The position numbers were made by a program, and so were the translations under genes. Source: an uncultured Candidatus Saccharibacteria bacterium (GTDB lineage: Bacteria > Patescibacteriota > Saccharimonadia > Saccharimonadales > JALRHH01). Taken from it: DNA of 34,794 nucleotides. The DNA lies in the NCBI GenBank assembly GCA_964638875.1, contig CAZXBL010000005.1, forward strand, positions 1 through 34,794, given 5' to 3'. The notes beneath the pieces were generated by a model that saw nothing but the letters and a program-made list of their open reading frames with translations, searched no databases and was not told the origin of the DNA. Shown in pieces: positions 1 to 19,868 of the stretch; the stretch's first letter is position 1, and the number at the start of each line of letters is the position of its first letter.

Positions 1-1155
1 GCCAGAGCCTACATGACTCTTATTAGCCAACGGGGTTGTCAAATGGCGTTCCCAGACGCAACTCTCTATAATGAGCAGAGCCAAGTCCCTGGAGTGACTG
101 ACAGCGCTGTGCAGTATGCTATCCCAATTTTTGTACCTAATAGTGCAGGTACGGGTTATGATCTTCGTTACATTAAAGGTGTCATCCCTGCGGGCTTCGA
201 TGAGGGCAGGTCTCTCGCATATGTGTCGGAAACGGGCAGAGTTGTCAGCGGCAATGCTCCTTATAAGACAAAGACCTGTGACAATGTTGTCGATATCCTC
301 CGGGAAGGTGGTAACCTAGACTCTTACTCCACTTGGCTTAGAGAAAATGCCGATGATGACCCAGACAGCGGGGCTAACGGCGGCGGCGTTAGTGAGCCTA
401 GCTGTGAGAGCGAGGCTGGTCCAGGCGCCTGGATTATGTGTTGGGTGATAGATGCAATAGACCGTTTTATCTCTATATTAGATCGGCAAATCCAAAGTCT
501 TCTATACATCGATAAAGACGTGTACGATAATCCCACTATCGATGAGGCGTGGGAGACCATGCGCAATCTTGCGCTTCTCATACTGGTGCCAATGATGATG
601 TTCATGGTTATAGGCACCGCCCTAAACTTTGGCCCGTTTGATCCGTACACGGTAAAAAAAGCTCTACCGAGAATGTTTGTAGCAGTTATGTTCATAGTAC
701 TGTCCCTTCCTATAACACAATTCGGCGTACAGCTCAGTAACGCAGTCGGACAGGGGTTAGGTAATATCATAATTGGCGCAGCACCTGATGATATAAGATA
801 TCTCAGTGATATCTTTGAAGAAGCCGGTGGGGCTTCGCAAGAAACTCTTGGATGGACCACCATCATTGCTGGCTTCGCAGGTTTTGCCGTTGGAGGAGCT
901 GGGGCGCTAATTAGCTTTGGGCTAGTGGCAATTGTGGGACTATTAATCGGTTTTTGCGTACTAGTACTCCGTCAGGTGTTACTAATCCTACTACTTGTAA
1001 TTGCGCCGCTGGCAATCTTGGCTTGGATCTTTCCTGGTAACGATAAATTGTGGGGCCTATGGAAGGGTACTCTTATAGCTATGTTGTTGATGTATCCGAT
1101 TATTTCTATGTTGTTGGCAAGTGGTAAATTTGTAGCAGGGATATTGGGTCAATAA
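1..1155 (+). CDS. VirB6/TrbL-like polytopic membrane protein of a T4SS-like apparatus (probably 5'-truncated by the window edge)
   Basis: The frame is open from nt 1, with no stop before ATG 13. About 190 aa of soluble N-terminal sequence lacks a signal peptide. It is followed by 5-6 hydrophobic helices (LALLILVPMMMFMVIGTAL, MFVAVMFIVLSLPITQFGV, GFAGFAVGGAGALISFGLVAIVGLLIGFCVLVL, LLLVIAPLAILAWIF, LIAMLLMYPIISMLLASG). It lies upstream of the PrgI-like and VirB4-like genes. The family call rests on topology and context only. Confidence 0.55.
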   Translation, partial: ARAYMTLISQRGCQMAFPDATLYNEQSQVPGVTDSAVQYAIPIFVPNSAGTGYDLRYIKGVIPAGFDEGRSLAYVSETGRVVSGNAPYKTKTCDNVVDILREGGNLDSYSTWLRENADDDPDSGANGGGVSEPSCESEAGPGAWIMCWVIDAIDRFISILDRQIQSLLYIDKDVYDNPTIDEAWETMRNLALLILVPMMMFMVIGTALNFGPFDPYTVKKALPRMFVAVMFIVLSLPITQFGVQLSNAVGQGLGNIIIGAAPDDIRYLSDIFEEAGGASQETLGWTTIIAGFAGFAVGGAGALISFGLVAIVGLLIGFCVLVLRQVLLILLLVIAPLAILAWIFPGNDKLWGLWKGTLIAMLLMYPIISMLLASGKFVAGILGQ

Positions 1156-2411
1156 TGGAAATAGTTATTACTTTTGCTGATATTACACAGAGTGATTTTG
1201 TACTCCTGCTTATTAAGCTCTCTGCATATATTATTCCTTTCTTCTTAATCCCCGCTGCGTTCAAAGCTGGCATGGGTGCCTTCGGCGCCATAACAGGTAT
1301 GATGACAGACCGCAGCCGTGGTTTCTTTGACAAACAACGCAAGAAACGCCAAGGTATGTACGACTATAACAAGGGGCGAATGAAATCTGGAGAACGCTTT
1401 AATAACCGTGGCCTAAACGCACTCACAAGTCGTGCGAGTACTAAGAATCTTGGGTTTGGTAGGAAAGGTGCCGCTGCCTACCAGCAAAAGGTTAACAATT
1501 CCGCGGCAGATTTTAGTAAATCAGCACTGGCGCAAGGCATACAACACAATGATGATGGTCTTGCTGCGCTGACTTACGGAAGTGCCGCAGAAGCACGCGC
1601 AAACCTGACAAGAAGTATCGCTGATGGTGGGTTTGGGTTTGATGAGGATAGGGCTAGGAATGCCGTTGCAGCAGCACAAGCCGCTGGTGGGTTCGGCAGG
1701 AACCGTCAGGTCTGGGCAGCTTCGCAACTATCAAGAACAGGAACTGGATATGAAAACATCGAACAAGTGACAAAAACCATTGCTCGAGTTTCACACGGTA
1801 ACTCTGGGCAGGCAGCGGCACTTGCAGGAGATATTAATGCCTCCACTAAACAAGTTGCGCGAAATGACTTAGCGCCAGGCTTTGGCACATTGAATACCTT
1901 AGCTCAGGCTGAAATGAATCGAAATACCCCGAACCCATCCCGAGACGACTACCACATTGCCACACGTGACGCATGGAATAGCGGCAGTATCGGAACAATG
2001 GTCAACAACAAAGGCAGCAGTATGGCAAACTTTACAACTGCGTTTGAAAGTGTTTTATCCAATCCTAACGCTACTCCTGTTGATAAACGGGATGCCGCTG
2101 TTGCGTTGGCAGAAATGCATGCCGCACTTCCGAGCGCGTCCGCTGCTAACCAGCAATATATTAACGATTCAATGCGGCAACTCGGCATAGACTACGAACG
2201 CACAACCCCTGAAACATTTACTGATGCTGCTGGTAACATCCAAACCAGGGACAGGTATGTAACAGTTGAGGAACAATTGTCGGAGATACTTGCAAACCAA
2301 GGTGTGGTTATGTCGGCCCAAGAGCTAAATCAATCTGCTCGAAAATATGGCTCTTCGGTACCGACTCCAGAGAGACAGGGTCAGCAAGAGCAGCCACCCC
2401 AAGAACAATAA
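1155..2411 (+). CDS. Membrane-anchored protein translationally coupled to the VirB6-like ORF (possible detached C-terminal part of it)
   Basis: The ATG overlaps the upstream TAA (TAATG at 1153-1157). The N-terminus has one or two hydrophobic helices (FVLLLIKLSAYIIPFFLIPAAFKAGMGAFGAITGMM). It continues with a basic stretch (RKKRQG) and about 350 aa of soluble Ala/Gly/Asn-rich sequence ending in a Q/P-rich tail. No catalytic motif was recognised. Confidence 0.6.
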   Translation: MEIVITFADITQSDFVLLLIKLSAYIIPFFLIPAAFKAGMGAFGAITGMMTDRSRGFFDKQRKKRQGMYDYNKGRMKSGERFNNRGLNALTSRASTKNLGFGRKGAAAYQQKVNNSAADFSKSALAQGIQHNDDGLAALTYGSAAEARANLTRSIADGGFGFDEDRARNAVAAAQAAGGFGRNRQVWAASQLSRTGTGYENIEQVTKTIARVSHGNSGQAAALAGDINASTKQVARNDLAPGFGTLNTLAQAEMNRNTPNPSRDDYHIATRDAWNSGSIGTMVNNKGSSMANFTTAFESVLSNPNATPVDKRDAAVALAEMHAALPSASAANQQYINDSMRQLGIDYERTTPETFTDAAGNIQTRDRYVTVEEQLSEILANQGVVMSAQELNQSARKYGSSVPTPERQGQQEQPPQEQ

Positions 2412-2430
2412 AGTATACAAACCAAGTATA

Positions 2431-2459
2431 TTGACATTCCTTCCATAAAATGCTAATGT
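2431..2459 (+). promoter_or_regulatory. Sigma70-type promoter (TTGACA-17-TAATGT with TGn extension) placed for a leaderless transcript of the 2466 ORF
   Basis: TTGACA lies at 2431-2436. A 17-nt spacer ending in TGC follows, then TAATGT at 2454-2459. The A of ATG 2466 is the 7th nt after the -10 hexamer. No usable Shine-Dalgarno spacing is present. Confidence 0.5.
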
Positions 2460-2465
2460 TAGGAC

Positions 2466-3515
2466 ATGGAAAGTTCTGACAGTAGCAGCCCAAATATAGG
2501 CCCACAGGTCGTTGAAGTTACGCAGGATCAGTACGCTGCAGCGCTTTCGATGGTAAGAGGCCTTGGACGGATTAACCCTGACTCATTCGCTGATGATCTT
2601 CGGTGGCAGATGGGTGAAAGAGATTCCCAAACGGGTGAAATTATTACTCCCTCGGACACAGTGACAAGCCCAGACCAAGCAGCGGCGATTATCGAAAACC
2701 TGCAAGGCAGGGGCATGCTCTCAGCAGAGACCGATGACGAGGGTCTACTTAGTTGGGCAGGCATGCCTCCTCGTGAAGAGGGCGAGTCAGGCGAGGCGGT
2801 AGAATCACCTGGACGGTTGAATCGATTAGCCAAAAAAGCAGGGAAAGTTATGCACCAGGCGGTCACACAAGCCGCTGAAGACATAGCAAAACAGTCTAGC
2901 GAATTTGCCGGCTACAACACAGTGAGTTCGGTGATAATGCGCGGACCTCGTGCTAAGGAAGCTTCGGCGAGTGCTGAGGCAGCTAAGAAAAACGAGAAAA
3001 GATTGAACCTTGAAGAGTTCGAGCAAGAACATAGCCGAAGAAGTAAGTTGCATATCACAGAGGTTGAGCACCCAGTCCAAGGAGCAAGGAGACGAGGTGA
3101 GCGTCGTCCTTCTATACAACCAGCTGCTCCTAATCCCGGTCGGCTCACAGATGCACGCACCAGTGCAAGCCCACCAGCAAGAACAGATACCCCAGGGCAT
3201 AGCCCACGAGATAAAGGCTTAAATGCCCCTTCAGAAAGAGCTCGTGAAGAAGCACGTCTTGTGCAACAGGCCCCCGAAACAGAACAAAAGCCTGACGGTG
3301 ATATACCGTCCATGGAGGAGATCCATTTTGAGATCAACCAACGAATTGGTAGAGCCAAACGGGAGGGCAGACCTGAGACATTTACAGAACTTGATAAAAG
3401 AATAAAGGTAGAGGTCTTTAATGAACTGGTTGAGAAACTTCCTAGTTCAAAGAGGGACAGCTTTAGAGCAGCTTTTCTTGCGGAGTTCTCAGATAATACA
3501 CCGCGTGCAACGTAG
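2466..3515 (+). CDS. Hypothetical highly charged, Pro/Glu/Arg-rich, probably disordered protein inside the T4SS-like gene block
   Basis: This is the longest ORF in the region and lies on the same strand as its neighbours. It has no TM segment or signal peptide and is compositionally biased (EEGESGEAVESPGR, RRGERRPSIQPAAPNPGR). Several shadow ORFs overlap it in other frames, as expected for biased composition. Confidence 0.55.
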   Translation: MESSDSSSPNIGPQVVEVTQDQYAAALSMVRGLGRINPDSFADDLRWQMGERDSQTGEIITPSDTVTSPDQAAAIIENLQGRGMLSAETDDEGLLSWAGMPPREEGESGEAVESPGRLNRLAKKAGKVMHQAVTQAAEDIAKQSSEFAGYNTVSSVIMRGPRAKEASASAEAAKKNEKRLNLEEFEQEHSRRSKLHITEVEHPVQGARRRGERRPSIQPAAPNPGRLTDARTSASPPARTDTPGHSPRDKGLNAPSERAREEARLVQQAPETEQKPDGDIPSMEEIHFEINQRIGRAKREGRPETFTELDKRIKVEVFNELVEKLPSSKRDSFRAAFLAEFSDNTPRAT

Positions 3516-3639
3516 GGTTCCTACATAGGTTCACTTTAGGGTATAGCCTGAGTTTTAAGGAAATTACATGCTGACCCAGAACGGTCCTGTTCCCTAGAGC
3601 AATAGAATTATGCTGCGAGAGGTTATATACTAAAGCGGT

Positions 3640-4602
3640 ATGGGCACATATAAGGTTATTCAGGATATTGAAGCAGAAGACACCATTATTGGGTGGATGA
3701 CCCCGAGACAGGCAGTTTATGCTGCTATCGTTATTGTTTCTGGGTTTATCTGGTTCATGCTTGCATCGAACGGGGCATGGTGGCTTGGTCTAGTCTTATT
3801 GCCACATATGATCCTCTTTTCCGTACTAGCAGGGCCTTTTGTGCACGATCAACCATCTGAGGTGTGGTTGCTTGCCAAAATTAAGTTTTTTCTGAAACCG
3901 CGTCGGCGTATATGGGATCAGTCCGGCATCAAAGAACTGGTAACTATCACTGTGCCAAAGCGAATTGAGAAGCACTTGACCGATGGGTTAACTCAGAATG
4001 AGGTCAAGAGTCGTTTGAGCGCGCTCGCCAACACAATCGACAGTCGCGGTTGGGCAGTCAAGAATGTGAACATGAACCTCTATGCACAGCCTGCATATGC
4101 AACCACCAGTTCTGATAGGCTTGTCGATCACAGCACCATGCCTCAACCAGTGCCAGATTACGATGTGTACGCTAGTGACGATATCCTTGACGCCACTAGC
4201 AATCCAGTGGCACAGCAGGTGCACCAGATGGTTACACAGTCTACGCAGGCGCACCGTCAGCAGGTAGTAGCACGAATGCAGCAACCATCTCAGGCTACTC
4301 CCCAACAACAATCCCCCCCATGGTTCGTAGACCCTGCAGCTCAGACGAATACAACAGTTAACGACCAAACTGATGTTCAACTAAACCAGCAGATCAAACA
4401 AAGCCGCCAGCAGGCAGCCCAGCAACACAGGCCTGGTGTATCACCTTCATCCGGGCAACTTCAGCATGCACGAGCACAGCAGCCCGTTGATCGTGCAGTG
4501 GTAAGCCAGCTAGCGCGAAACAATGACCTAAATGTTTCCACAATTGCCCGTCAAGCAAATAAATCCGACGATGATAATGAGGTAGTTGTCAGCCTACGAT
4601 AA
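3640..4602 (+). CDS. PrgI-family (VirB3-like) T4SS membrane protein with a long Q-rich C-terminal extension
   Basis: The N-terminus (YKVIQDIEAEDTIIGWMTPRQAVYAAIVIVSGFIWFML..WWLGLVLLPHMILFSVLAG..EVWLLAKIKFFLKPRRRIW) has the two-helix hairpin layout typical of PrgI-family proteins. Such proteins sit directly upstream of VirB4 genes in Gram-positive T4SS loci. About 180 aa of Gln-rich low complexity follows. Confidence 0.65.
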   Translation: MGTYKVIQDIEAEDTIIGWMTPRQAVYAAIVIVSGFIWFMLASNGAWWLGLVLLPHMILFSVLAGPFVHDQPSEVWLLAKIKFFLKPRRRIWDQSGIKELVTITVPKRIEKHLTDGLTQNEVKSRLSALANTIDSRGWAVKNVNMNLYAQPAYATTSSDRLVDHSTMPQPVPDYDVYASDDILDATSNPVAQQVHQMVTQSTQAHRQQVVARMQQPSQATPQQQSPPWFVDPAAQTNTTVNDQTDVQLNQQIKQSRQQAAQQHRPGVSPSSGQLQHARAQQPVDRAVVSQLARNNDLNVSTIARQANKSDDDNEVVVSLR

Positions 4603-4731
4603 GTGGTATACTTAAGCAGTATCAGCATGCTGGATATTCGTGCTATCCGAGCTAAAACTCGGCCTAGCCGACAAAACCGGCATGTGGCTACGGCCTTCGG
4701 TCATAGCGCGCTGCGCGAATAATAAAACCTC

Positions 4732-5703
4732 GTGAGACAGGTGGGACAGCAAACATCCATGGATCCAAACACACAAAATCCGCAGTACCAGCCGGCAGCT
4801 CCTGCTGTGCCTAACGCTGCACCGCAGTCTTACGCCCAAGGTAATGTGCAGCAAGCATACCAGCAAACCCCGCCGCCTCAGTACGCCCCACAACCAGGGT
4901 ATGGACAGGTGTCGGCCCCTGGTGTTGTAGTCGGTAGTGCACCCCAAACCCAACCGAACATGCCAGCACCCAAGAGCAACCCAAACAGCACACAAAATAC
5001 ATTGCAGATCGCAGAGATTAGGGACGGTATCGTTATTATGAACGACGGCTCTTTCCGCTGCGTAGTAATGGTTAAGTCAATCAATTTTGATTTAATGAGC
5101 CCTCAGGAGCGTGAGGCAGTTGAGTTCAGTTATCAGGGTTTTTTGAATTCTCTATATTTTGATATACAAATATTTTTGCGTTCGCAAAAAGTTGATATTG
5201 CCCCGTACATCAACCGTCTCGATAAAATTCGTTCCGAACACGACAACATGTTGTTAGCGTTATTGATGGAAGACTACATTGGCTACATCGCTGATATTGC
5301 ACAGCACACTAATATTATGGACAAAAAGTTTTACGTGGTAATTCCGTTTAACCCGGTACCAGACATTAAACAACTTGGCGCGCAGAGCAAGAATTTCTTT
5401 ACTGGACTTGCTGGAGTCTTTAAGCCTAAAGAGCAACATGTCACGATCAACGAGGCCGACCTAGAAAAAGCCAAGGATGAACTACGCAACCGGGTACAGG
5501 CTGTGCTCGGCGGTTTACAGCAGTGCGGCATACAAGGTCTTCCCCTCGATACACAAGAGTTGATAGAACTGTACTACGATACCTACAATCCGGACACTGC
5601 GACGCGTCAGCAGCTAAAGAACTTGGATGATTTAACCGCACCTGTCATTACCAAAGGTCAGGGCATGGCACCTCAGCCTAATCTTGATAGGGAGATCCAG
5701 TAA
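4732..5703 (+). CDS. N-terminal domain of a VirB4/PrgJ/ConE-type T4SS ATPase encoded as a separate ORF, preceded by a P/Q-rich region
   Basis: After about 90 aa of P/Q-rich sequence comes LQIAEIRDGIVIMNDGSFRCVVMVKSINFDLMSPQEREAVEFSYQGFLNSLYFDIQIFLRSQKVDIAPYINRL. This is the pattern seen at the N-terminus of Gram-positive VirB4 homologues. The stop overlaps the next ATG (TAATG at 5701-5705). The start is uncertain: GTG 4732 or ATG 4759. Confidence 0.65.
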   Translation: MRQVGQQTSMDPNTQNPQYQPAAPAVPNAAPQSYAQGNVQQAYQQTPPPQYAPQPGYGQVSAPGVVVGSAPQTQPNMPAPKSNPNSTQNTLQIAEIRDGIVIMNDGSFRCVVMVKSINFDLMSPQEREAVEFSYQGFLNSLYFDIQIFLRSQKVDIAPYINRLDKIRSEHDNMLLALLMEDYIGYIADIAQHTNIMDKKFYVVIPFNPVPDIKQLGAQSKNFFTGLAGVFKPKEQHVTINEADLEKAKDELRNRVQAVLGGLQQCGIQGLPLDTQELIELYYDTYNPDTATRQQLKNLDDLTAPVITKGQGMAPQPNLDREIQ

Positions 5704-7610
5704 TGGCACGCAAGAAACAGCAACTCGACCCAGTTGCCCTTGCTCAGGCACAACAGCTGCGTGAGCAGCAAGAAGTTCAGGCAGCGTTTCAAAAGGGTGT
5801 CACCGCGCTTCGTGATTTTATTGCACCTAGTTCATTAGAGTTTTTTGCCACCCATTTCCAACTAGGTACTCGATTTGCACGTACCTATTATGTGTACGGG
5901 TACCCTAGGCAGATCTACACTGGTTGGTTAAGCAACATGGTTAACCTCGATGAGGTTATGGACCTGTCAATGTTTATCTACCCTGTAGAAAGCCAGGTTG
6001 TCCTAGAAAACTTGCGCAAGAAAGTCACACAGCTGGAGGCTGGACTACAGATCGACTCAGAAAAAGGTCGTGTTCGTGACCCGGGCAAACAAGCGGCGAT
6101 TCTCGATGCGGAAGAGATGCGCGATAAGCTACAGGTTGGGGAGGAACGCTTTTTCCGCTTCGGCCTATATTTCACCATCTATGGTGGCACCATGGACGAG
6201 CTAGAATTTGTGGCCCATAAGGTTGAGTCAATGCTTGGGCAGCAACTGGTGTACAGTAAACCGGCTACTAGCCAACAAGAGCAAGCGCTGAACAGCACTA
6301 TCCCACAACTGACCGATCAACTACAAATACGACGAAACTTGAATACCGGGGCACTTAGTACGAGTTTCCCATTCACAAGCGCAGACCTGACCCAGGACGA
6401 CGGTATTTTATACGGTATTAACATGCATAACTCTGGTTTAGTTATCTTTGACCGGTTTAGCCTGGAGAATAGTAATTCAGTCGTCTTTGCAAAGTCTGGT
6501 GCCGGTAAGTCGTTTGCCGTAAAGCTGGAAGCGCTCCGATACATGATGATGGGTACCGAAATATTTATTGTCGACCCAGAGAACGAATATCAACGTATGT
6601 GTGAAGCAGTTGGCGGTGCCTATGTTCGGCTTAGTCTAACCTCGCCAACACGTATCAACCCGTTTGACCTACCCCAGGTTGTCGATACAGACGAAGCCGA
6701 TAACGCACTGACGAGCAACCTCCTAACTTTACACGGGCTACTACGCCTCATGATGGGCGGTGCCCAGGCGTCAATGGCAAACAGTGGGGGACCATCTTTG
6801 CCGGCGCTCGCGCCAAGTGAAGAGGCCGATCTTGATGCTGCTCTTATCGAGACGTACGCTAAGGCTGGCATCACCCAGGACCCCTTAACCCACGGGAGTA
6901 CACCACCGACCATCGGTGACCTGTACGACACCTTGTTACACATGGGGGGGACAGGTCCTCAACTAGCACAACGACTACGTAAATACACCACGGGCACATT
7001 CGCAGGTATTTTCAGCCAGCAGAGCAACATCGATATTAATAACCCTTTGGTCGTGTTTAACATTCGTGATCTGGAAGATGAGTTGCGCCCGGTGGCTATG
7101 TACATTGTTCTGAACTTTATCTGGAATAAGACTAAGAGCGATCAAAAGAAGCGTCTTCTTATTGTTGACGAGGCTTGGCAGTTGATGAAATACGAAGATT
7201 CCGCAAACTTCCTGTTTAGTCTTGCTAAGCGTGCCCGTAAATATAACCTTGGCATTACCACCATTACTCAAGACGTAGAAGACTTTATGGGCTCCCGAAT
7301 GGGTCGTGCGATTGTCAGCAATGCGTCCATGCAACTTCTGCTTAAACAATCACCAGCAGCAGTTGACGTTTTATCAGATGTTTTCAAGTTAACGAGCGAG
7401 GAGAAGAAACGCCTTAGTCAATTCCCCGTTGGGCAAGGGTTGTTCTTCGCTGGACAAAACCACGTTCATATTCAAATTGCAGCAAGCGCAACTGAGGCGA
7501 GTCTTATTACTACTAACCCAGACCAAGTCAAGGCTATCGAACAACAAGGGGAAATGTACAATACTGGTGGAACCATCGATCTGAATAACCGCCTACATCC
7601 GGGGGTGTAA
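5703..7610 (+). CDS. virB4: VirB4-like T4SS ATPase (central and C-terminal ATPase part)
   Basis: Walker A is VFAKSGAGKSFAVKLE (about nt 6490-6516). Walker B is RLLIVDEAWQLM (about nt 7155-7185). Additional matches include YYVYGYPRQIYTGWLSNMV, ITTITQDVEDF and QLLLKQS. The length and order fit the VirB4/TraC/TrbE family. Confidence 0.9.
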   Translation: MARKKQQLDPVALAQAQQLREQQEVQAAFQKGVTALRDFIAPSSLEFFATHFQLGTRFARTYYVYGYPRQIYTGWLSNMVNLDEVMDLSMFIYPVESQVVLENLRKKVTQLEAGLQIDSEKGRVRDPGKQAAILDAEEMRDKLQVGEERFFRFGLYFTIYGGTMDELEFVAHKVESMLGQQLVYSKPATSQQEQALNSTIPQLTDQLQIRRNLNTGALSTSFPFTSADLTQDDGILYGINMHNSGLVIFDRFSLENSNSVVFAKSGAGKSFAVKLEALRYMMMGTEIFIVDPENEYQRMCEAVGGAYVRLSLTSPTRINPFDLPQVVDTDEADNALTSNLLTLHGLLRLMMGGAQASMANSGGPSLPALAPSEEADLDAALIETYAKAGITQDPLTHGSTPPTIGDLYDTLLHMGGTGPQLAQRLRKYTTGTFAGIFSQQSNIDINNPLVVFNIRDLEDELRPVAMYIVLNFIWNKTKSDQKKRLLIVDEAWQLMKYEDSANFLFSLAKRARKYNLGITTITQDVEDFMGSRMGRAIVSNASMQLLLKQSPAAVDVLSDVFKLTSEEKKRLSQFPVGQGLFFAGQNHVHIQIAASATEASLITTNPDQVKAIEQQGEMYNTGGTIDLNNRLHPGV

Positions 7611-7695
7611 TGCACACCCTTTCTGCAATTAATAGCAGGCGTGCTGGATTCCACTTTCTAGTACATAACCGGTATAATGATCTTTAAGAGGATTT

Positions 7696-10600
7696 TTGGT
7701 GTCACCAGCAAAACGAAAAGACGAAACTGCACAGGAGTCCATTAAACCGGACTTTCTTGATGGCATCGACATTAGCCGCGAAGAAGCGGAGGAAATGGAG
7801 AACAATGCTTTCAATGGTGCTGCACGAGACATCGCTGACAAAGAAGCTCTTTCGAATACTGAGATAGCGAACGCCGAGACAGCTGGCGGACCAGGTGTTT
7901 CGACCGAAGGTGACAAGGCAGAGAGCGACAAAGTTGACGGCTTATATAACTCCAAAGATAAGGGAAAGAATCGCGGCCGCTTTAGTTCACTGTTAAGCAG
8001 TAGACGCAACAAGTTGATTGCTGGAGGAGTCGGTGGTGGAGGCGTAATCGGACTGGGCTTGCTTGGTTTGCTTTTCTTACCGCTTGGACCCAAGCACATG
8101 GTGACGAATCTCCAGCAGACATTTTTCGCCAACAGCGAAGAAGCTGCAGAGAAGGCAACAAATCGTTTATTATCTAGCTATATTATTTACAAAGTAATGC
8201 CTGGCCTTAGTGGCACCTGTCCGTCAACGAAAGCAAACAAAAGTTGTGCCAAGGTTAGCCAAGATGACAATATCGTTACACAATTGTATCGCTCTTGGAG
8301 GGATCAGAACCTAGAAGGCAAGATGTATGAAAAGCACGGAATTGAAATACGCCGTGAAGGTAATACCATGGTCATGCGCAGTGATCGGCTGCAAGAAGAT
8401 ATATTTAGAGGCGACTATAACGGCGGGAATGACGCAGAATTCGAACGCAAATTCTTCACAACGATGGACCGAAAAGAAGTTCGCAAGCAGATGCTTAACT
8501 CCATAGAGAACGAGACGTTTTACAAGCGTATGATGTACCGCTATAAATACGGCAGGTTAATGGAACGGAAATACGGAGTGGTCAGGTGCCTTATCGCCTG
8601 TGACTATCGCCAAGACAAGGCGGATCGTAAGGAACTCCGCAAAATGAAAATGAAAGCATGGGTTATACATCGAGTCGTTGGTCCGTTAAACGAAGGTTAC
8701 GGTATGGCGTTTGAGTGTGCTGTTGCTCAGTTCGATTGTGCTGCGGAGCATAACAATACTGTGGACGAGGACGGTACAAAGAAGACAAAGTTCGAAAACG
8801 ACCTAAGGGATAAGACAAAAGAGATTATTGGCGATGGGCGCATGACCCAAGAACGACTTGCGAAATTACAGACAGACGCCGGTGAAATCAGAGAGAACGG
8901 TATGGCAAACTTCCTACTGAAGAAGATCTTAGGTGAGGCGGGTGGTAAACTCGTTGGTAATGTAGTTCCTGGGCTTGGGTTAGCCGACGCTTTAGCCAAA
9001 CTGGTTGAAGGGGTAACTAAAGCAGGACCAGCAATAAAAACGATGCAGTACGCTATGGCAAGTGGGGCGGCAGTCAATGTCTGGACAATGTACCAGGCGA
9101 ATGCCAGTGAAGTAAATTCCGGAAATATTAATGTAGAAGAGCTGGGGTATGTTGCCGACTCTCTCGGTGATAACTTTGGTAAGGATCAAGGTGGCGGTGG
9201 GGCAGGATCAACTCCTTACTACCAAGACATCATGGGCAGCCAGGGTGTCTCCACGGCCTCCCTGTTCCCTAAGGCAGAGGCAGCTTCTCCCTTCAAGTGT
9301 GATGATGGGTCGTATATCACCACTGGTCTATGCCCGGAAATGAGCGTGTCTGCTGCCACCGGTGGTGCCGAAGCTGTGAAATCCTTCAGTGATTTTTTAA
9401 GGAAGTATCACCTCGATTCGATTGCTGCTATATGGAACTCTAGTATTGGAAAAATTTTCGATGCACTCAACAACCTTATTGGTATATTCACTGATCTTGC
9501 AGGTGATCTTGCAGGTGCACTAACACCTGATGCCATAAAAGATAAACTTGCAGATCTTGCCAAAGCAATAGGTGAATGGTTTACCGAGAAGCTCTTCGTT
9601 AGCTTCATAACAGACGATACCAGTGGTGGCAGGATGTTCGAGGCAGCCGCACTTGGTGCAAACATCGCTGGAAACGACTTTGCGCACTATGGGCTTGGGG
9701 CAGGCAAAATATCCGACCAGGCAGCAAACAGAGTTCGTTACGCCCGTGCCGTAGAGCAAAAGCAAGAGTTTATGGAGAAGTCGATGTTTGCGCGCATATT
9801 TGATACATCTAGCAGCTACTCTACCGCTTCTCAATTGGCTCTTGCTATGCCGTCAGGGGCAAGTTCAACAGCTCACTCTCTTTCATCAACACTTTTGAAT
9901 CCGGTAAGTATGATTTCATCAACACTGACTGGTTCTAGGAAGGTTAATGCCGCTCCTAAAGAAAACCTCGATTTGGCCGGAGTGACACAGTATGGATACG
10001 CAGAAAATGATCCAATCTTCAGTGTAACCGACTATGAAAAGTGGTGGACAGATAGCAATTGTGACGATGAGTCAGTGGTAACTGCTTGGGGTGAATCTGC
10101 AACGATGAGTAGTAAGAACGGCTCATTCGAGAATGACCAACCAAATCGCTGTAAGCTCATTGAAGCGATGTCTACTAGTAACTGTGGCTACACGAATGAC
10201 GAGTGTCTTACTCCAGAGGAGCTCGGTGATCAAGTAAATTCATATGGTGAAAACACTAATGGTGGTGTGGCACTACGTGCAGCATCATTTAACATTTTGC
10301 ACTCTCCTGATGGTAATGTAGAGGCTCGTTTGCGGAAATCTATCGACACGCTGCTTAACCCGCCCGGTGGTGGTGAACAGGTTGACGTTGTTGGGCTTCA
10401 GGAGGTCCGAAAGGACCAACTAGCTATGCTAAAGGCAAGTAACTTTGGCCAACAGTATAATATGTTCCCCAACACGCCAAACAACCGAGAGTATGAGCCG
10501 AACATAGTTGCTTGGCGAAAAGATAAATACACCGTCATAAAGGAAGCAACGATGAATGCTAGGTACTTCTTTGGAAATCCGGAGCAAATGCCAGTTGTAA

Positions 10601-11547
10601 AACTAAAAGAAAATTCAACAGATCGTGTACTCTATTTTGCCAGCATCCACAATCCCCGGTCTGGTGGAGATCCGTTTAGGGGTAATAATGAAGGTGTTCG
10701 TGACGATAACGCGCGTTTGTTCCAAGAATACTTTGCAAACCTTAAACAACAGGAGCCTGACACGCCGATGATCCTTGTAGGTGATTTTAACGCAGGCTAC
10801 CAGGCGGCCGATAAGCTTGAAGATGTGCCATATGGACGAAGATCATTTTGCATCCTAACTAATGGCATTTTCTGGGATGCGTGGCATGCATCGAAGAAAA
10901 TTGATGGCAAGTGTCCTAAACGAAGTACGGTTAATTTCATCGACCATATCTTTATTGATCGAGACACGCAGGTATCCAAGTTCTTTACTGCCCCACGGGG
11001 CATAGATAAAAATGGGTCAGACCACCCGACAATCTTTGCGGACCTAACTGGCCCTGATCTTACGGGAAGTGATGGTTGGTCATGGCCACTGAAATCAAGC
11101 GTCACCAGTGGCCCGTGCTATGGTGTGGAAGTTAAGGATCTCGGTAAGCATGCTGGCATGGATATGAATACATCGAAGGGTGACAACCCCGTGCTAGCAA
11201 TACACTCTGGTAAAGTCGTAAGGGTAGGCGCAGATCCGTACGCAGGAAACTACATCACAATTCTTGCTGACGCCCCGTTCAACAACAAACGTGTCTACTA
11301 TTCATACGAGCACCTAAAGTCAGGCACTATAAAATTCGCCGAAGGCGACCGTGTATTGGGCGGTGAGAAGGTGGCTATTGCGGGAACATCGGGCAGATTC
11401 TTTGGATCGTCATTAGGTCATTTGCATATCGTCACCGCTACAACAAATAGCCTGGGTGGGTATGGCAGCCTCGGAACTACATTTAACCCGATGGATGTAT
11501 TGAAAAACGCAGGGCCTGCTCCGGAAGGTTACAAGTGCACGCAGTAA
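7696..11547 (+). CDS. 1283-aa bitopic T4SS-associated multi-domain protein: cytoplasmic charged N-terminus, one TM, about 700-aa unknown ectodomain, EEP (endonuclease/exonuclease/phosphatase) domain, C-terminal M23 peptidase
   Basis: The TM segment is GGVGGGGVIGLGLLGLLFLPLG. EEP motifs are RAASFNILHS, VVGLQEV, ILVGDFNAGY and NGSDHPTIFADL (about nt 10270-11045). M23 motifs are HAGMDM (HxxxD) and GHLHIV (HxH) (about nt 11090-11470). TATAAT lies at 7673-7678 and AAGAGGA lies upstream of the TTG 7696 / GTG 7699 start. Confidence 0.85.
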   Translation: MVSPAKRKDETAQESIKPDFLDGIDISREEAEEMENNAFNGAARDIADKEALSNTEIANAETAGGPGVSTEGDKAESDKVDGLYNSKDKGKNRGRFSSLLSSRRNKLIAGGVGGGGVIGLGLLGLLFLPLGPKHMVTNLQQTFFANSEEAAEKATNRLLSSYIIYKVMPGLSGTCPSTKANKSCAKVSQDDNIVTQLYRSWRDQNLEGKMYEKHGIEIRREGNTMVMRSDRLQEDIFRGDYNGGNDAEFERKFFTTMDRKEVRKQMLNSIENETFYKRMMYRYKYGRLMERKYGVVRCLIACDYRQDKADRKELRKMKMKAWVIHRVVGPLNEGYGMAFECAVAQFDCAAEHNNTVDEDGTKKTKFENDLRDKTKEIIGDGRMTQERLAKLQTDAGEIRENGMANFLLKKILGEAGGKLVGNVVPGLGLADALAKLVEGVTKAGPAIKTMQYAMASGAAVNVWTMYQANASEVNSGNINVEELGYVADSLGDNFGKDQGGGGAGSTPYYQDIMGSQGVSTASLFPKAEAASPFKCDDGSYITTGLCPEMSVSAATGGAEAVKSFSDFLRKYHLDSIAAIWNSSIGKIFDALNNLIGIFTDLAGDLAGALTPDAIKDKLADLAKAIGEWFTEKLFVSFITDDTSGGRMFEAAALGANIAGNDFAHYGLGAGKISDQAANRVRYARAVEQKQEFMEKSMFARIFDTSSSYSTASQLALAMPSGASSTAHSLSSTLLNPVSMISSTLTGSRKVNAAPKENLDLAGVTQYGYAENDPIFSVTDYEKWWTDSNCDDESVVTAWGESATMSSKNGSFENDQPNRCKLIEAMSTSNCGYTNDECLTPEELGDQVNSYGENTNGGVALRAASFNILHSPDGNVEARLRKSIDTLLNPPGGGEQVDVVGLQEVRKDQLAMLKASNFGQQYNMFPNTPNNREYEPNIVAWRKDKYTVIKEATMNARYFFGNPEQMPVVKLKENSTDRVLYFASIHNPRSGGDPFRGNNEGVRDDNARLFQEYFANLKQQEPDTPMILVGDFNAGYQAADKLEDVPYGRRSFCILTNGIFWDAWHASKKIDGKCPKRSTVNFIDHIFIDRDTQVSKFFTAPRGIDKNGSDHPTIFADLTGPDLTGSDGWSWPLKSSVTSGPCYGVEVKDLGKHAGMDMNTSKGDNPVLAIHSGKVVRVGADPYAGNYITILADAPFNNKRVYYSYEHLKSGTIKFAEGDRVLGGEKVAIAGTSGRFFGSSLGHLHIVTATTNSLGGYGSLGTTFNPMDVLKNAGPAPEGYKCTQ

Positions 11548-13739
11548 TGAGTTTGTTACAAAATTATTATAAACGCTTTGTAAAAACCATGCGGCTGGCC
11601 CTGATAGGGGCCTTGGTTATCAGCGTCTCTATACCCCAAGCAGTATACGCATTACCGCAATCAGAAAAAGAACAAATCGATGAAAACTCTGTCGACTACG
11701 TTAAGGGAGGGGTATGTGCGCCCGCAGACTCGTCTGCCAGCGCTACCGGCGGAACAGTTGGCAGCTACACAAATCCCGTGTACGACGGAGTGGGTCAAGG
11801 CCCTACGGTCATATTGGGCGATGATGGCATATATCATGTCTATCTCACTAGCGATGACAAAAACCCCTTTAAGCATTTAAAGTCAAAGAACCTCGTGGAC
11901 TGGGACCTGGTGTCGCGGGACACAATATCAAACCTCAACGATATTCCAAAAGATCTACGCAATGTAATGTGGGCGCCCGATGTTGCCAAGACTGGCGATC
12001 ACTATACTATGGTGTTTACTGGCGGCTCTAAGGGGGGCAACGAAGGCGTGAGGTATATTGGCTACGCCACTAGCAATGATGCCGCCGGGCCTTTTAAGTA
12101 TCGTGGGCGTCTCACAGAACCTCAAGATCCAGGCGGCCGCGTACTGGACCCGCACTTATTTCTCGAAGGCGATAAAATATATGTAACGCATGGGTCATCT
12201 CCGATCGCGATATCAGAGATAAATATGCAGACAGACGGAAAGATGTCGATTGTCGGATCGAGTAAAGAGTTGGTGCTCCGTGGCACCTGGGCAGGACATC
12301 CATCAACCATCGAACAATCTTGGCTGCATAAGATTGGTGGGTGGTACTACATGTTTTATTCGGCTGGGCACTATAGGGATCGTGATGGCCACCAAGAATA
12401 TTCAGTTCGCGTTGCAAGATCTAAAAATCTAATGGGACCCTACAATCCCGAGGATCACTCAAGGATTGTGCTTCAAAGCAAAGATCCATTCGATGCTCCT
12501 GGGGCATCCACAATTATCCAAGACGGCTCTGGCACTTACTGGATGATATATAACGCCTTTAAGGGAGGTGAACGGCGGTTGATGCTAGATAAACTGAACT
12601 TTGAGAATGGTTGGCCAGTTGCAAATAATGGATATCCTTCGTCGACAAAACAAGACGGTGGTGGCGACTCGGGTGATGCCCCAGCCAGGGCAAGCATCGA
12701 CGCCTGCTGCGCCACCTCAGGTGCCGACATTTCGGATCCCACAGCAAACACCACAGGTGCTCAAGGATCAACTGCTAAAGAGGTTTTTGTATTTCTGATT
12801 GGCAAAGGTTTGACCGCGAAGCAAGCCGCTGGAATAGTAGGTAACCTTATGTCGGAGTCCGGGGTAGGGAAAACAAAGTTTGATCTTGACCCTAAGGTCA
12901 CAAACGGAATAGGTGCCTATGGTATCGCCCAGTGGTTATACGAGCGTAAGACGGCCTTACAGAAAAAAGCTAATTATGACACACTGCAAGTACAAATGGA
13001 CTTCATGTGGCACGAACTAACCACGGGTTATAAAGCCAGCACCTTAACACCGATTAAAGCCAGCACGGAATATATAGGTCCGAACGGTTCAGTACGTATA
13101 TTCCTTGAGAACTACGAGATTCCCTGTACAGCCGGATCCGACTGTGACAGCTTTTATAACACCAGAAAGGGCTATGCAGACCAAGCATACGCCGCTTTCA
13201 AAGATCTTGGACCAGATGATGTAGGTAGTACATTAGGTGGTGGTTGCAGTGGAAGTAGTGATGCGTATATTGACGCAAGTGGCTTCGCCTGGCCCCTCGT
13301 AATGCCAAAAAATAAAATATCAAATGGCTGTCCTTGGCCTACCCGTACTTCCCCCCCTTATTGTCACCACGATGGCACTCCCGCGTTTGACCTATTCGCA
13401 CCCGTTGGGACAAAAGCGGTTGCAATAACTGACGGTACTATCGACAGCATAAATCCTTATCGTAGCACCGGTTGTCAATCTATTCAGTTCAAGAGTAATG
13501 ACGGCTGGTACTACTGGTACGGACACACTAGAACGGATAGCGAGACTCCGGCTATTGGTGCTCCGTTAAAAGCTGGTGACTATATATCCAAGGTTGGAGA
13601 AAGTGTGTGTGCCTTAAATACTTCTCCCCACCTCCACATTGACAGAGGATTCCCTAAGGGGACGCGAGGAGGGGACGACCCTAGCCGTGATCCTGATTTC
13701 CTCAAGATTATGAACGAACTGTATAAGAACATGGAGTAG
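11547..13739 (+). CDS. Secreted triple hydrolase: GH43 beta-propeller + phage-tail-type lysozyme domain + M23-like metallopeptidase
   Basis: The signal peptide is MRLALIGALVISVSIPQAVYA. GH43 blocks are NPVYDG..GPTVILGDDGIYHVY, WAPDV, VLDPHLFLEGDKIYV, EQSWLHKIGGWYYMFYSAG and RRLMLDKLNFENGWPV. The lysozyme block is AAGIVGNLMSESG...YGIAQW. The M23-like block is PAFDLFAPVGTKAVAITDGTI...SPHLHID. The preferred start is ATG 11547, overlapping the upstream TAA. GTG 11535 and ATG 11589 are alternatives. Confidence 0.85.
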   Translation: MSLLQNYYKRFVKTMRLALIGALVISVSIPQAVYALPQSEKEQIDENSVDYVKGGVCAPADSSASATGGTVGSYTNPVYDGVGQGPTVILGDDGIYHVYLTSDDKNPFKHLKSKNLVDWDLVSRDTISNLNDIPKDLRNVMWAPDVAKTGDHYTMVFTGGSKGGNEGVRYIGYATSNDAAGPFKYRGRLTEPQDPGGRVLDPHLFLEGDKIYVTHGSSPIAISEINMQTDGKMSIVGSSKELVLRGTWAGHPSTIEQSWLHKIGGWYYMFYSAGHYRDRDGHQEYSVRVARSKNLMGPYNPEDHSRIVLQSKDPFDAPGASTIIQDGSGTYWMIYNAFKGGERRLMLDKLNFENGWPVANNGYPSSTKQDGGGDSGDAPARASIDACCATSGADISDPTANTTGAQGSTAKEVFVFLIGKGLTAKQAAGIVGNLMSESGVGKTKFDLDPKVTNGIGAYGIAQWLYERKTALQKKANYDTLQVQMDFMWHELTTGYKASTLTPIKASTEYIGPNGSVRIFLENYEIPCTAGSDCDSFYNTRKGYADQAYAAFKDLGPDDVGSTLGGGCSGSSDAYIDASGFAWPLVMPKNKISNGCPWPTRTSPPYCHHDGTPAFDLFAPVGTKAVAITDGTIDSINPYRSTGCQSIQFKSNDGWYYWYGHTRTDSETPAIGAPLKAGDYISKVGESVCALNTSPHLHIDRGFPKGTRGGDDPSRDPDFLKIMNELYKNME

Positions 13740-13744
13740 GGCCT

Positions 13745-14176
13745 GTGCAATTGAGTAGTAAAGAAAAATTAAGAATTATTTTGGCAGGGGCATTTATTTT
13801 AATTGCCTTGGTTTTTTTAGTATTACTAACCAGGTTCAATTCTGGAATTGGAGCCCCTGGGACAAAAGAAGATCATGGTCATGCACATACTTCAGAGGAA
13901 AAATCGCAGCTTGAGATTCGTGAAAAAGATAAGCTTGTTGAGTTCACCGGAAAGTCGATCGCTAATACGGTTGCCTCACAGTTATACGCTGAACATTACA
14001 AGAGGGGTGCGAAGCTAGAGCGGGAGGCGGGGCTTACAGAGTTCAAGCAATCCGGAGGTAAGTCAGCTGATATATCTGTTCGCTTTGAGCCATCCGGTGA
14101 TCTAATTTCTGCTAGGATAACTATCAACAACAAGGCTACAAATGATTTTGACCTGGATATCAAGGAGGCCAAGTAA
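13745..14176 (+). CDS. Small N-terminally anchored protein of unknown function at the end of the T4SS-like block
   Basis: It has a GTG start, one TM helix (LRIILAGAFILIALVFLVLL) and an ectodomain of about 100 aa. The stop overlaps the next ATG (TAATG at 14174-14178). Confidence 0.6.
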   Translation: MQLSSKEKLRIILAGAFILIALVFLVLLTRFNSGIGAPGTKEDHGHAHTSEEKSQLEIREKDKLVEFTGKSIANTVASQLYAEHYKRGAKLEREAGLTEFKQSGGKSADISVRFEPSGDLISARITINNKATNDFDLDIKEAK

Positions 14177-15525
14177 TGAACTCAGGGCCTTATACAAAAG
14201 TAATAAACTATTTCTTGCTGTTGGCTGCGTTTATAATGTGCATCTCGCTGGTAATGTACGGATATGCAGTCACTAAAACACCAAGACTAAACGTATCCAA
14301 CACACTTAGTAATAACATGTTTTTTATCGACAAGTTATCTGATGCCGAAATTCGGTACTATAACGGCAACACTTTTGTGGCCATGAATCCTACCACTAGA
14401 AAAACCGGGCTGTTATCGCAATACCGTATGCTCCCAGATGTAAATCAGGTTTTTTGGTTAACCAACGGGGTAGTGTTCGCTACGACCGAAGTAAGCACGT
14501 TTAGCGAACTTAATCCTATTCTTCAGAATGAGCTTGTTAATAACCCTGGTAGCCGAGCAGGTGACACCCCCACATATTGGTATCTTTCATTCCAGGATCA
14601 GCTCATTAGACCTATTAGCAACGATGTGGTTCAGCCAGCAAGCTTCGGTGTATTAGCAAGTGACGGATCATTCGTTTTTAAAGATGGCCCTGAAGGCTCA
14701 TACTCAATACTCAAAGAAAACGGTGAGGTGATCCTTGGTGCTGTTAACGTAGAGGGTGACTCAAAACCTCTCTTTGCTACCGACAAAAAGTTAATTTACA
14801 CATCTCAGGTAGAGGAGCGCTCAAGTAATCGAGAATCAGAAAGTGTGGTTTCGCTAAAGTCCGCGGAATTTTACAAAGAGGATAGTAAGACAATAGTTGA
14901 CGACTTGTTCGAAGACAAAACTAGCACGGTATTTGGGGAAATCACTTCCATAGACGAAACACGTTACCTAATCAACAGAGCTGTAAAAAGGGATAAACCG
15001 GGTGGTGGTGATTTGTACATTTACGATACAAAATCAAAGAAGAGTAATCGAATAATTAAGGACTTTGAAGGTGTTGTCAGTAAGAACTCTTCGGGTGTAG
15101 TCGCTGTAAAACAGGGTCGTAAATTTAATGTTGTGCACCGTGTCGAAAGCGACGGCGTAAAAGATCGTGCCCGGTTTGAGCGAGAAGAGCACCAGACGGT
15201 AGCAAGCACTACCCACTTTGATGGGGGTTATATTCTTTCAAGTGGGAATGGTAAATCTTTCTTTATACATAAAGATGGAGTTAAGACAGACTTGCTTGGA
15301 AAGGACGCTTACGGCGGAGCTTTGGAGAAAGAAATCCAGAGGCTACCTAATAACAACAGACTACTCCGAGACATTGAGTCACCTTATGACACCAGCTACA
15401 CCTTACAATTCAATGGTAAATCTAGAGATGCACTCGGCACATTGCAAGCAGCGATTAGTAGCAAGGGCTACGACCCCAATCAATTTATTATCACACTTAC
15501 CCCTGGGAGAAGTGTTGAGTACTAG
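14176..15525 (+). CDS. N-terminally anchored 449-aa extracytoplasmic protein of unknown function (beta-rich by composition)
   Basis: The TM helix is NYFLLLAAFIMCISLVMYGYAV. The ORF is long and uninterrupted and is translationally coupled to the upstream ORF. No motif was recognised. Confidence 0.65.
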   Translation: MNSGPYTKVINYFLLLAAFIMCISLVMYGYAVTKTPRLNVSNTLSNNMFFIDKLSDAEIRYYNGNTFVAMNPTTRKTGLLSQYRMLPDVNQVFWLTNGVVFATTEVSTFSELNPILQNELVNNPGSRAGDTPTYWYLSFQDQLIRPISNDVVQPASFGVLASDGSFVFKDGPEGSYSILKENGEVILGAVNVEGDSKPLFATDKKLIYTSQVEERSSNRESESVVSLKSAEFYKEDSKTIVDDLFEDKTSTVFGEITSIDETRYLINRAVKRDKPGGGDLYIYDTKSKKSNRIIKDFEGVVSKNSSGVVAVKQGRKFNVVHRVESDGVKDRARFEREEHQTVASTTHFDGGYILSSGNGKSFFIHKDGVKTDLLGKDAYGGALEKEIQRLPNNNRLLRDIESPYDTSYTLQFNGKSRDALGTLQAAISSKGYDPNQFIITLTPGRSVEY

Positions 15526-16580
15526 TTGGTAAGAATGACGTGGGTTTTGTCGAGGAAGTATTCTACGACTACGTCGGCATCTGTGGTGGTTATGAAGGTC
15601 TGGTAGTCTTGTAGAACTTCTGTGAGTGCCTTGCGGCGGGCACCATCAAGCTCGCTGAAGACGTCGTCTAGTAATAGTATGGGCTTCTTGCCGCGAGCTT
15701 CCTCAACAATGCGCATTTCGACCGTTTTGAGGGCTAGTAACATTGTCCTGGTTTCCCCGCGTGATGCTGCCTCGTGCAATAATTTACCTTTCAAAATAAT
15801 CCGCATGTCATCGCGGTGGGGGCCATAGGTTGTGAAACCACGCTCAAAATCCTGTTTGGTACTTTGTTCTAATTTATGCAGCATATCAGAACTGTATTGG
15901 TCTGTTTGGCATCCGCTAACGTAAGCCACGGTGACTTCCGCGTCTGCACGCGAGATATCCTGGTATAACTGCTGGACTTGCCCACTAATCTTTGCAACTA
16001 GCTTCATTCGGTGCTCAGCGATTTGACCACCCAGTTGGCTTAAGCGAATGTTCCATGCGAACAACTGTGAAGCACCAATTTCTGCGCCTAGTTTTAGTAG
16101 TCTGTTCCTTTGCGCCAGGGCACGGCGGTACTGAACTCGCAGTGTTGCGAAACCCGGTGTGAATTGCTCCAGAATCCCGTCCAGGTAATCACGACGGAGG
16201 TCAGGGGAACTAGCAAGTAGTTGCAGATGATTGGGCTCAAACAACACCACCGGTATTTGCTTCTGTAGGCTAAGGCGTTTCAGTGGCTGGTCACTAATAA
16301 CGTACTCTTTTTTTATGCTTCCGTTTGGTTCACTTATCAGTTTAACTGTGCGGGTGCCCTCTGGTGTACCGACATCAATTCGCGCCCATGGTTGCTCAAA
16401 CTGCACCAGCTCAGCGTCTTTAACCCTATATGAACTACCGAGGCAATTCACCAAAATGGATTCAAGCAAGTTCGTCTTACCACTGGCGTTAGGGCCAACG
16501 ATAATATTCACACCAGGATCTATCTCGAAGGAGCTGTCCTGGTACGAACGGAAATTTTGTAACCTAATATCAGTAATCAT
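15522..16580 (-). CDS. recF: DNA replication and repair protein RecF
   Basis: MITDIRLQNFRSY. Walker A is GPNASGKTNLLE. Walker B is ILLLDDVFSELD. It is located downstream of dnaN. Confidence 0.93.
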   Translation of the reverse strand: MITDIRLQNFRSYQDSSFEIDPGVNIIVGPNASGKTNLLESILVNCLGSSYRVKDAELVQFEQPWARIDVGTPEGTRTVKLISEPNGSIKKEYVISDQPLKRLSLQKQIPVVLFEPNHLQLLASSPDLRRDYLDGILEQFTPGFATLRVQYRRALAQRNRLLKLGAEIGASQLFAWNIRLSQLGGQIAEHRMKLVAKISGQVQQLYQDISRADAEVTVAYVSGCQTDQYSSDMLHKLEQSTKQDFERGFTTYGPHRDDMRIILKGKLLHEAASRGETRTMLLALKTVEMRIVEEARGKKPILLLDDVFSELDGARRKALTEVLQDYQTFITTTDADVVVEYFLDKTHVILTN

Positions 16581-19819: not shown

Positions 19820-19837
19820 ATCAAGCAGGACAATAAA

Positions 19838-19868
19838 AGGAGCCTCAAGCAAGGGCTCTTTTTTAATT
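19838..19868 (+). terminator. Rho-independent terminator-like hairpin after rpmH
   Basis: AGGAGCC (19838-19844) pairs with GGCTCTT (19854-19860), including one G-U pair. The loop is 9 nt and the stem runs into a T6 tract (19859-19864). Confidence 0.45.

Follow-up and report, generated by a model that had tools for sequence, protein, structure and literature searches.

Introduction

A type IV secretion system (T4SS) has been described in the Saccharibacteria by Wang et al. (2023, Cell), who reported an “apparent T4SS (SEML1_0006-0019)” in Southlakia epibionticum and found it, by transposon sequencing (Tn-seq), to be essential for the epibiotic growth of this species on its actinobacterial host (PMC10633639). 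This system is closest to Gram-positive conjugative systems, includes a series of essential pilins, and has no recognisable coupling or relaxase proteins (PMC10633639). Next to dnaA, dnaN and recF are genes for two proteins that are exported and for a hydrolase of the lysozyme type. Then come a protein of 1113 amino acids (aa) whose C-terminal part is a peptidase, VirB4, a protein of 293 aa and PrgI, and these are followed by a protein of 998 aa, one that is NTF2-like, a VirB6-like protein of 1088 aa, six pilins and, last, Hsp20 (PMC10633639). A 2025 review describes it as the first T4SS that is essential for the survival of its own carrier bacterium (PMC12857230). Here, the corresponding locus is described from an uncultured Candidatus Saccharibacteria bacterium, in a stretch of DNA of 34,794 nucleotides (nt) (contig CAZXBL010000005.1 of assembly GCA_964638875.1), the whole of which is referred to as the window.

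Quiñonero-Coronel et al. (2025, Microb Genom) found that the VirB4 proteins of Patescibacteria form a clade related to MPF-FATA, in which TrsD, PrgI/VirB3, VirB6 and VirB2-like pilins are encoded near virB4, often near dnaA/dnaN, relaxases are nearly absent, and homologues of coupling proteins are rarely adjacent (PMC12102498). The MPF-FATA systems used for comparison are pCF10 Prg/Pcf, pIP501 Tra, pGO1 Trs, CTn2 CD1110, and ICEBs1.

The block of genes at 1-15525 of the window is very probably the copy, in this genome, of the chromosomal T4SS that Saccharibacteria inherit vertically, i.e., a member of the Patescibacteria clade derived from monoderm MPF-FATA machinery, since the layout in the window and its relatives is the same as that of SEML1_0004-0019. 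We infer that it is a host-interaction machine, for protein delivery or exchange of material, rather than a machine for conjugation. The finding is real but already described: a relaxase-less, dnaA-proximal and essential T4SS has been published (PMC10633639 and PMC12102498), as have its Gram-positive ancestry and its pilin array, and the window adds no new principle. The original prediction, made from the DNA sequence alone, had proposed a chromosomally fixed, contact-dependent machine of an epibiotic or parasitic small-genome bacterium, repurposed from conjugation; its interpretation is supported, with contact dependence and the breaching of a host envelope or exchange of macromolecules as its putative parts, but it re-derives published knowledge and does not stand as a new idea.

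Composition of the Locus

The window (1-34,794) is the entire contig, and its left edge falls within the VirB6 gene. Ten open reading frames (ORFs) of at least 140 aa, all on the + strand, occupy 1-15525:

o1, <1-1155, + strand: VirB6-like polytopic membrane protein, 5′-truncated by the contig end
o2, 1155-2411, + strand: C-terminal half of an “extended VirB6”, with one transmembrane helix followed by a hydrophilic domain
o3, 2466-3515, + strand: charged, non-membrane, fast-evolving protein between VirB6 and PrgI
o4, 3640-4602, + strand: PrgI/VirB3-like membrane protein whose C-terminus is a long, Q-rich tail
o5, 4732-5703, + strand: TrsD-like protein, similar to the N-terminal region of VirB4
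o6, 5703-7610, + strand: VirB4 ATPase of the Gram-positive (MPF-FATA-derived) type
o7, 7696-11547, + strand: 1283-aa membrane-anchored protein with an N-terminal part of 860 aa, an EEP phosphoesterase domain and an M23 peptidase
o8, 11547-13739, + strand: 730-aa exported hydrolase with GH43, phage-tail lysozyme and M23 peptidase domains
o9, 13745-14176, + strand: small, lineage-specific single-pass membrane protein (transmembrane helix 11-29)
o10, 14176-15525, + strand: 449-aa lineage-specific single-pass or exported protein (transmembrane helix 9-27)

The original prediction had counted eleven tightly packed ORFs on one strand. The packing and the strand are as it described, whereas the count is ten, as the gaps of 55-130 nt between ORFs are too small for an eleventh. 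The four TAATG overlaps of stop and start codons lie exactly where it had placed them (1153-1157, 5701-5705, 11545-11549 and 14174-14178). Its outline of the block has to be mended in three places: the first gene is truncated, o1 and o2 correspond to the two halves of one gene in most relatives, and o5 is TrsD-like. Of the core that it had recognised, PrgI and VirB4 are borne out by profile matches over cutoffs, and VirB6 stands on weak sequence evidence. At least five components had been thought to have no family; this number shrinks to o3, o9 and o10, together with the N-terminal 860 aa of o7. For o1, o2, o3, o9 and o10 there was no profile match over any curated cutoff in Pfam or NCBIfam.

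The left end of the secretion system, including the pilin array, falls outside the window. The G+C content is uniform over the whole window, no tRNAs were found in it, and the only direct repeats were imperfect chance matches of 16-24 nt, in keeping with the flanking repeats having been reported absent. A scan for promoters and terminators gave counts close to those expected from shuffled sequence and was uninformative.

The resemblance to S. epibionticum ML1 (SEML1_0004-0019) extends to the phylum, the chromosomal site by recF-dnaN-dnaA, and the gene order. The sizes of the proteins are close (VirB4, 612 aa in S. epibionticum and 635 aa in the window; TrsD-like, 293 and 323 aa; PrgI, 300 and 320 aa), and the protein of about 1100-1300 aa with a C-terminal peptidase that follows VirB4 is alike in size class and slot; the correspondence rests on order, sizes and domains rather than on direct sequence comparison. 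There are also differences. VirB6 is one protein of 1088 aa in S. epibionticum but two ORFs in the window; the region between VirB6 and PrgI encodes the 998-aa and NTF2-like proteins in S. epibionticum but a single protein of 349 aa in the window; and the enzymes of S. epibionticum are an M15-like peptidase and two lysozymes plus a cysteine peptidase, whereas those of the window are EEP plus M23 and GH43 plus lysozyme plus M23. Compared with the published T4SS of the Patescibacteria clade, nothing essential differs in the window.

The likeness to MPF-FATA systems consists of a VirB4 that scores over the CD1110 cutoff, homologues of PrgI and TrsD, a polytopic, putatively VirB6-like protein, and multi-domain wall hydrolases beside VirB4, comparable to PrgK, TraG and CwlT (PMC12102498). 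In contrast to MPF-FATA systems, the block has no relaxase, coupling protein or integrase, occupies a fixed chromosomal site and is vertically inherited; the Saccharibacteria locus has VirB2-like pilins, which Gram-positive systems lack; and no VirB8-like protein was recognised in the window.

Conservation of Gene Order in Relatives

The VirB4 of the window is 82-94% identical to those of more than 500 species representatives in GTDB, of which the nearest 80 loci were kept for comparison. The titles of nearly all of these loci name Saccharibacteria, Saccharimonadales/-ia or Patescibacteria, the others being an unassigned “bacterium”, and the Saccharibacteria lineage accords with the small-genome epibiont that had been proposed. 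Gene order was compared by tblastn of the window proteins against the kept loci. It is constant in 81 loci: on the left are Hsp20, about six divergent VirB2-like pilin genes and the extended VirB6, and on the right are a variable gene, PrgI, the TrsD-like gene, VirB4, variable hydrolases, and recF-dnaN-dnaA. In 61 of the 62 loci that reach at least 9.5 kb beyond VirB4, recF/dnaN is found 5-9 kb downstream of VirB4 on the opposite strand, which upholds both the chromosomally fixed position that had been predicted and the constant proximity to dnaA. In the sole exception, L063, the 10 kb downstream of VirB4 hold pilin genes but neither recF nor dnaN. On one short contig (L076), recF starts 58 nt past VirB4 and the hydrolase region is absent.

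Over the same loci, the mean identity to the window proteins is 85% for VirB4, 73% for DnaA, 69% for DnaN and 56% for RecF. As VirB4 is better conserved than DnaA, DnaN and RecF, the sequences indicate that it is a core gene under strong constraint and not cargo of a mobile element.

The upstream side can be seen in the relatives. In the nearest of these (L003, VirB4 94% identical), there is a VirB6-like gene of 568 aa and, on the opposite strand, six VirB2-like pilins followed by Hsp20; one of these pilins matches the Pfam family T4SS_pilin (PF18895) at 1.1e-15. With a profile built from the six L003 pilins, arrays consisting mostly of six genes were found upstream of VirB6 in 50 loci, with Hsp20 beyond the array in 32 loci. 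Thus, the upstream side in the relatives is a pilin array and Hsp20, not VirD4, relaxase or integrase, in agreement with the earlier view that the block is not a conjugation module.

These observations bear on the possibility that the block is an integrated conjugative element, or the decayed remnant of one, with its relaxase, coupling protein and integrase just past the end of the contig. Its components are of the Gram-positive conjugation type, and the contig ends within VirB6, so that the upstream side is out of view in the source genome. However, the upstream side of the relatives does not hold mobility genes, the site by recF-dnaN-dnaA is constant, VirB4 is better conserved than DnaA, and there is neither a compositional break nor a meaningful direct repeat. 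Relaxases are, moreover, reported in only about 100 genomes of Patescibacteria, and rarely near virB4 (PMC12102498). An integrated conjugative element is therefore extremely improbable, and is practically excluded by synteny.

The absence of mobility genes from the block, which the original prediction had reported, also held in profile searches: no relaxase, integrase, Rep or Par family of Pfam or NCBIfam was matched by the ten ORFs. No relaxase or integrase family was matched in the rest of the window, and no relaxase was found upstream in the relatives. Among the ORFs of the 81 loci that have a Walker A motif, none is a coupling ATPase; these ORFs encode the scaffold and hydrolase proteins that follow VirB4.

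PrgI, TrsD-like Protein and VirB4

The three genes o4, o5 and o6 encode the PrgI, TrsD-like and VirB4 proteins. o4 matches PrgI in Pfam at 1.6e-7 (32.2 bits, cutoff 27), has two predicted transmembrane helices, and is conserved in 70 loci. o5 matches TrsD in NCBIfam (2.3e-6) as well as two VirB4 models in their N-terminal parts, but none of these matches reaches its cutoff; its counterpart in L082 carries the TraC-like family PF26593, and a search of the PDB gave no usable match to o5. The TrsD-like gene and VirB4 are always separate (no fusion in 79 loci), and the order of the TrsD-like and PrgI genes upstream of virB4 is kept in 70-79 loci.

o6 matches the CD1110 family of NCBIfam at 5.6e-105 (352 bits, cutoff 325; model positions 178-733) and P-loop_TraG of Pfam at 2.7e-30, and its best match in the PDB is the Gram-positive VirB4 4AG5 (9.4e-48). 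Its Walker A motif, AKSGAGKS, is at residue 263 and is the only one among the ten ORFs, as expected from the report of no second Walker ATPase in these 15.5 kb. o6 also has a weak, generic match to CedB and CedD.

Saccharibacteria are naturally competent and are not known to make nucleotides. Both properties would suit a machine for DNA uptake, like ComB of Helicobacter or Ced of the Sulfolobales, feeding a nucleotide-auxotrophic cell with host DNA. The match of VirB4 to CedB and CedD could be taken in the same sense, as could the presence of nucleic-acid phosphodiesterases among the structural neighbours of the EEP domain of o7 (see below). However, the match to CedB is far under the cutoff (52 against 700 bits), and the neighbours of the EEP domain include sugar phosphatases too. 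Furthermore, competence in S. epibionticum depends on type IV pili and ComEC, and deletion of comEC abolishes transformation while viability is kept, whereas the T4SS is essential (PMC12857230). Thus, DNA uptake is a very unlikely function of the system.

The Putative Extended VirB6 and the Variable Gene

The reading frame of o1 is open to nt 1, so that about 180 N-terminal residues are missing from the window. The remainder has four or five predicted hydrophobic segments and shares 50% identity with the C-terminal part of an ORF of 568 aa in L003 (L003:3405-5111). The ORF in the window has no match in Pfam itself, and among 36 homologues of the extended VirB6 the TrbL family of Pfam was matched weakly by only two, at best at 8.5e-4. 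A profile of these 36 homologues had no credible match in the PDB; influenza haemagglutinin HA2 came up (E 0.004-0.1) through the last transmembrane helix and the helical stretch that follows it, and was judged to be a compositional match. Support for VirB6 is added by the polytopic topology, by the position in the locus, and by the annotation of SEML1_0013, at the corresponding position in S. epibionticum, as VirB6-like on the basis of structure (PMC10633639).

o2, which follows o1 as a separate ORF via the first TAATG junction, has its transmembrane helix at residues 15-33. In 34 of 38 relatives, the counterparts of o1 and o2 form a single in-frame ORF of 800-1300 aa. The split in the window looks like a real, lineage-specific gene fission, because VirB6 is also split in L003, L005, L018 and L081. 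An identical contig of 2.7 kb (L001) shows the same split between o1 and o2.

The gene between VirB6 and PrgI is variable: o3 has no match to a family in Pfam or NCBIfam and no tblastn match in the 80 loci, and it has only a motif of 63 aa (40% identity) in common with its positional counterpart in L003.

The Modular Hydrolases that Follow VirB4

The two genes directly after VirB4 encode large proteins with enzyme domains that differ from species to species. In o7, a predicted transmembrane helix (112-130) lies within the N-terminal 860 aa, and the C-terminal end matches EEP (Exo_endo_phos, 1.5e-13) and Peptidase_M23 (1.9e-11) in Pfam. The N-terminal 860 aa are conserved and mostly helical, and in at least 17 loci they are encoded immediately behind VirB4. 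The C-terminal enzyme, M23 in the window, is VanY, an M14 carboxypeptidase, alginate lyase or phosphatase in relatives. o7 appears to be a conserved scaffold on which the C-terminal enzyme can be exchanged.

An AlphaFold2 model of the EEP plus M23 part (predicted local distance difference test, pLDDT, 76) matches EEP structures at E 3e-14, so that the predicted structure confirms the EEP fold, which the sequence of this part did not match in the PDB. Seven Asn/Glu/His/Asp columns are invariant in the EEP part and are read as a putative catalytic set. As the structural neighbours range from mannosyl-6-phosphatase through to DNA phosphodiesterases, no substrate can be assigned to the EEP domain.

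o8 has a hydrophobic segment at the N-terminus and matches GH43 (7e-41), Phage_lysozyme2 (3.4e-23) and M23 (5e-9) in Pfam; its GH43 domain matches 4QQS in the PDB at 3.6e-14. The lysozyme domain occurs in 28 loci, with other partners in the relatives (GDSL lipase plus SLT plus M23, or glucosaminidase plus amidase), and the GH43 domain is in none of the 80. Proteins combining GH43, lysozyme and M23/CHAP are rare, as only four were found among 5.8 billion. In L082, a GH43-lysozyme-peptidase protein (9605-11791) is in the same slot adjoining dnaN/dnaA, beside an EEP plus M23 protein.

Taken together with the preceding sections, these features suggest how the system could work. PrgI, the TrsD-like protein and VirB4 would form a membrane-associated motor, and the extended VirB6 would be the channel. 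Motor and channel would assemble a VirB2-type pilus or conduit, while the membrane-anchored hydrolases would open peptidoglycan locally. The hydrolases probably also attack the host envelope, given that the enzyme domains are swapped between species and include activities not directed at peptidoglycan (GH43, EEP, alginate lyase, GDSL lipase).

Possibly, nothing enters the host at all, and the system is only for pilus assembly and adhesion, with VirB2-type pili and with hydrolases that remodel the cell's own wall in the role of VirB1. The six-gene pilin array conserved in the locus and the absence of a coupling protein to recruit substrates would both be in accord with this, and two-domain wall hydrolases are described as normal in Gram-positive T4SSs (PMC12102498). 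However, remodelling of the own wall alone would hardly explain the rapidly swapped domains named above, to which the M14 peptidase can be added. Furthermore, secretion of proteins is retained by some T4SSs that have no coupling protein, such as Ptl of Bordetella and VirB of Brucella (PMC12102498). A machine for pilus assembly and adhesion alone is therefore considered unlikely, and host interaction is the preferred function.

T4SSs with purposes other than conjugation are known from several bacteria. Through the X-T4SS of Xanthomonas/Stenotrophomonas, effectors that degrade walls and lipids are delivered to other bacteria. In serving such purposes, Ptl, Brucella VirB and X-T4SS are like the present system as proposed here, and some of them also work without a coupling protein (PMC12102498). 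They differ in that they are diderm MPF-T systems and have an outer-membrane core complex. Neither effector-immunity pairs nor effector signal domains were identified in the window, and the analogy is functional only.

Several points weigh against the reading of the block as a host-interaction T4SS of this clade. Profile searches of the window detected no VirB8-like (NTF2) component, the VirB6 assignment of o1 is weak at the level of sequence, and the AlphaFold2 model of the N-terminal 860 aa of o7, made from an alignment of 10 sequences, is unusable (pLDDT 41). The window covers 34.8 kb only, so that a VirD4-like protein or a relaxase could be encoded elsewhere in the genome. Many Patescibacteria have distant, non-essential homologues of coupling proteins (PMC12102498).

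The Origin Side of the Locus

The last two genes of the block are lineage-specific. o9 has no match to any family, including phage families, and no homologue in the 80 loci; its predicted topology of a transmembrane helix and a small domain would be compatible with a VirB8-like component. o10 has only a weak match to a beta-sandwich (EMC7, 7.9e-4, under the cutoff), and may be the equivalent of SEML1_0004/0005 in S. epibionticum, which are exported, have a beta-sandwich and are annotated as prealbumin-like/PEGA (PMC10633639). Beyond o10 are the following genes:

recF, 15522-16580, − strand: identified by Pfam match
dnaN, 16594 to about 17688, − strand: identified by Pfam match
dnaA, 17961-19349, − strand: identified by Pfam match
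origin-type gene set, 19350-21894, + strand: rpmH (19682-19819), rnpA, yidC and jag/khpB

The block had been said to run straight into recF-dnaN-dnaA, and it does so stop-to-stop: o10 and recF are convergent, and their stop codons overlap within the palindrome CTAG at 15522-15525. Thus, the T4SS operon and recF have no intergenic room between them in which a terminator could lie. The dnaN ORF as listed (437 aa, 16594-17907) has a spurious N-terminal extension of 73 residues, as the Pfam match starts at residue 75; a start near 17688 leaves a spacer of about 270 nt between dnaA and dnaN (17689-17960), in which there is one site resembling a DnaA box (17778-17786). Three such sites, each with one mismatch, are in the dnaA-rpmH intergenic region (19405-19508). 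As the number of DnaA boxes in the window as a whole is not above chance, we infer the position of the replication origin, oriC, in this region from the gene order.

Further to the right are genes of other kinds. Just past jag/khpB, at 21967-22554, is the gene for a PaaX-like regulator whose middle domain is Cas2-like (4.2e-22). A protein of 926 aa (23116-25896) has a cutinase domain (Pfam, 2.4e-21) and matches a PHROG family labelled “endolysin” at 4.7e-10; tblastn of the cutinase domain against phage genomes gave no match, and the LysB-like role that might be given to this protein rests solely on the PHROG match. Downstream of it are four successive ORFs of about 210-240 aa (25938-28754), two of which have a weak PsbP-like match and two none, and which may be a family of paralogous exported proteins.

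Significance of the Locus

The contribution of the window is in comparative detail, i.e., the strict boundaries of the locus from Hsp20 to recF, the conservation of VirB4 above that of DnaA, the fission of VirB6, and the hydrolase slot in which domains are swapped. The boundaries, the fission and the domain-swapping scaffold after VirB4 were not found stated in the available part of PMC12102498.

The sole lead beyond the literature is a speculative one, namely the reading of the hydrolase slot in terms of the host envelope. The two proteins that follow VirB4 could be a polymorphic toolkit matched to the envelope of the host, and the toolkit in the window would then point to a host with an arabinogalactan/mycolate wall (Corynebacteriales). 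This possibility, which must be regarded as doubtful, is suggested by the rare fusion of GH43 (arabinanase-like) with lysozyme and M23, by the fusion of EEP with M23, and by the protein with the cutinase domain, which is encoded 8 kb away from the hydrolase genes.

The T4SS probably has a central part in the exploitation of hosts by ultra-small epibiotic bacteria. If the reading of the hydrolase slot were true, the domain content of the slot after VirB4 could predict the hosts of uncultivated Saccharibacteria.

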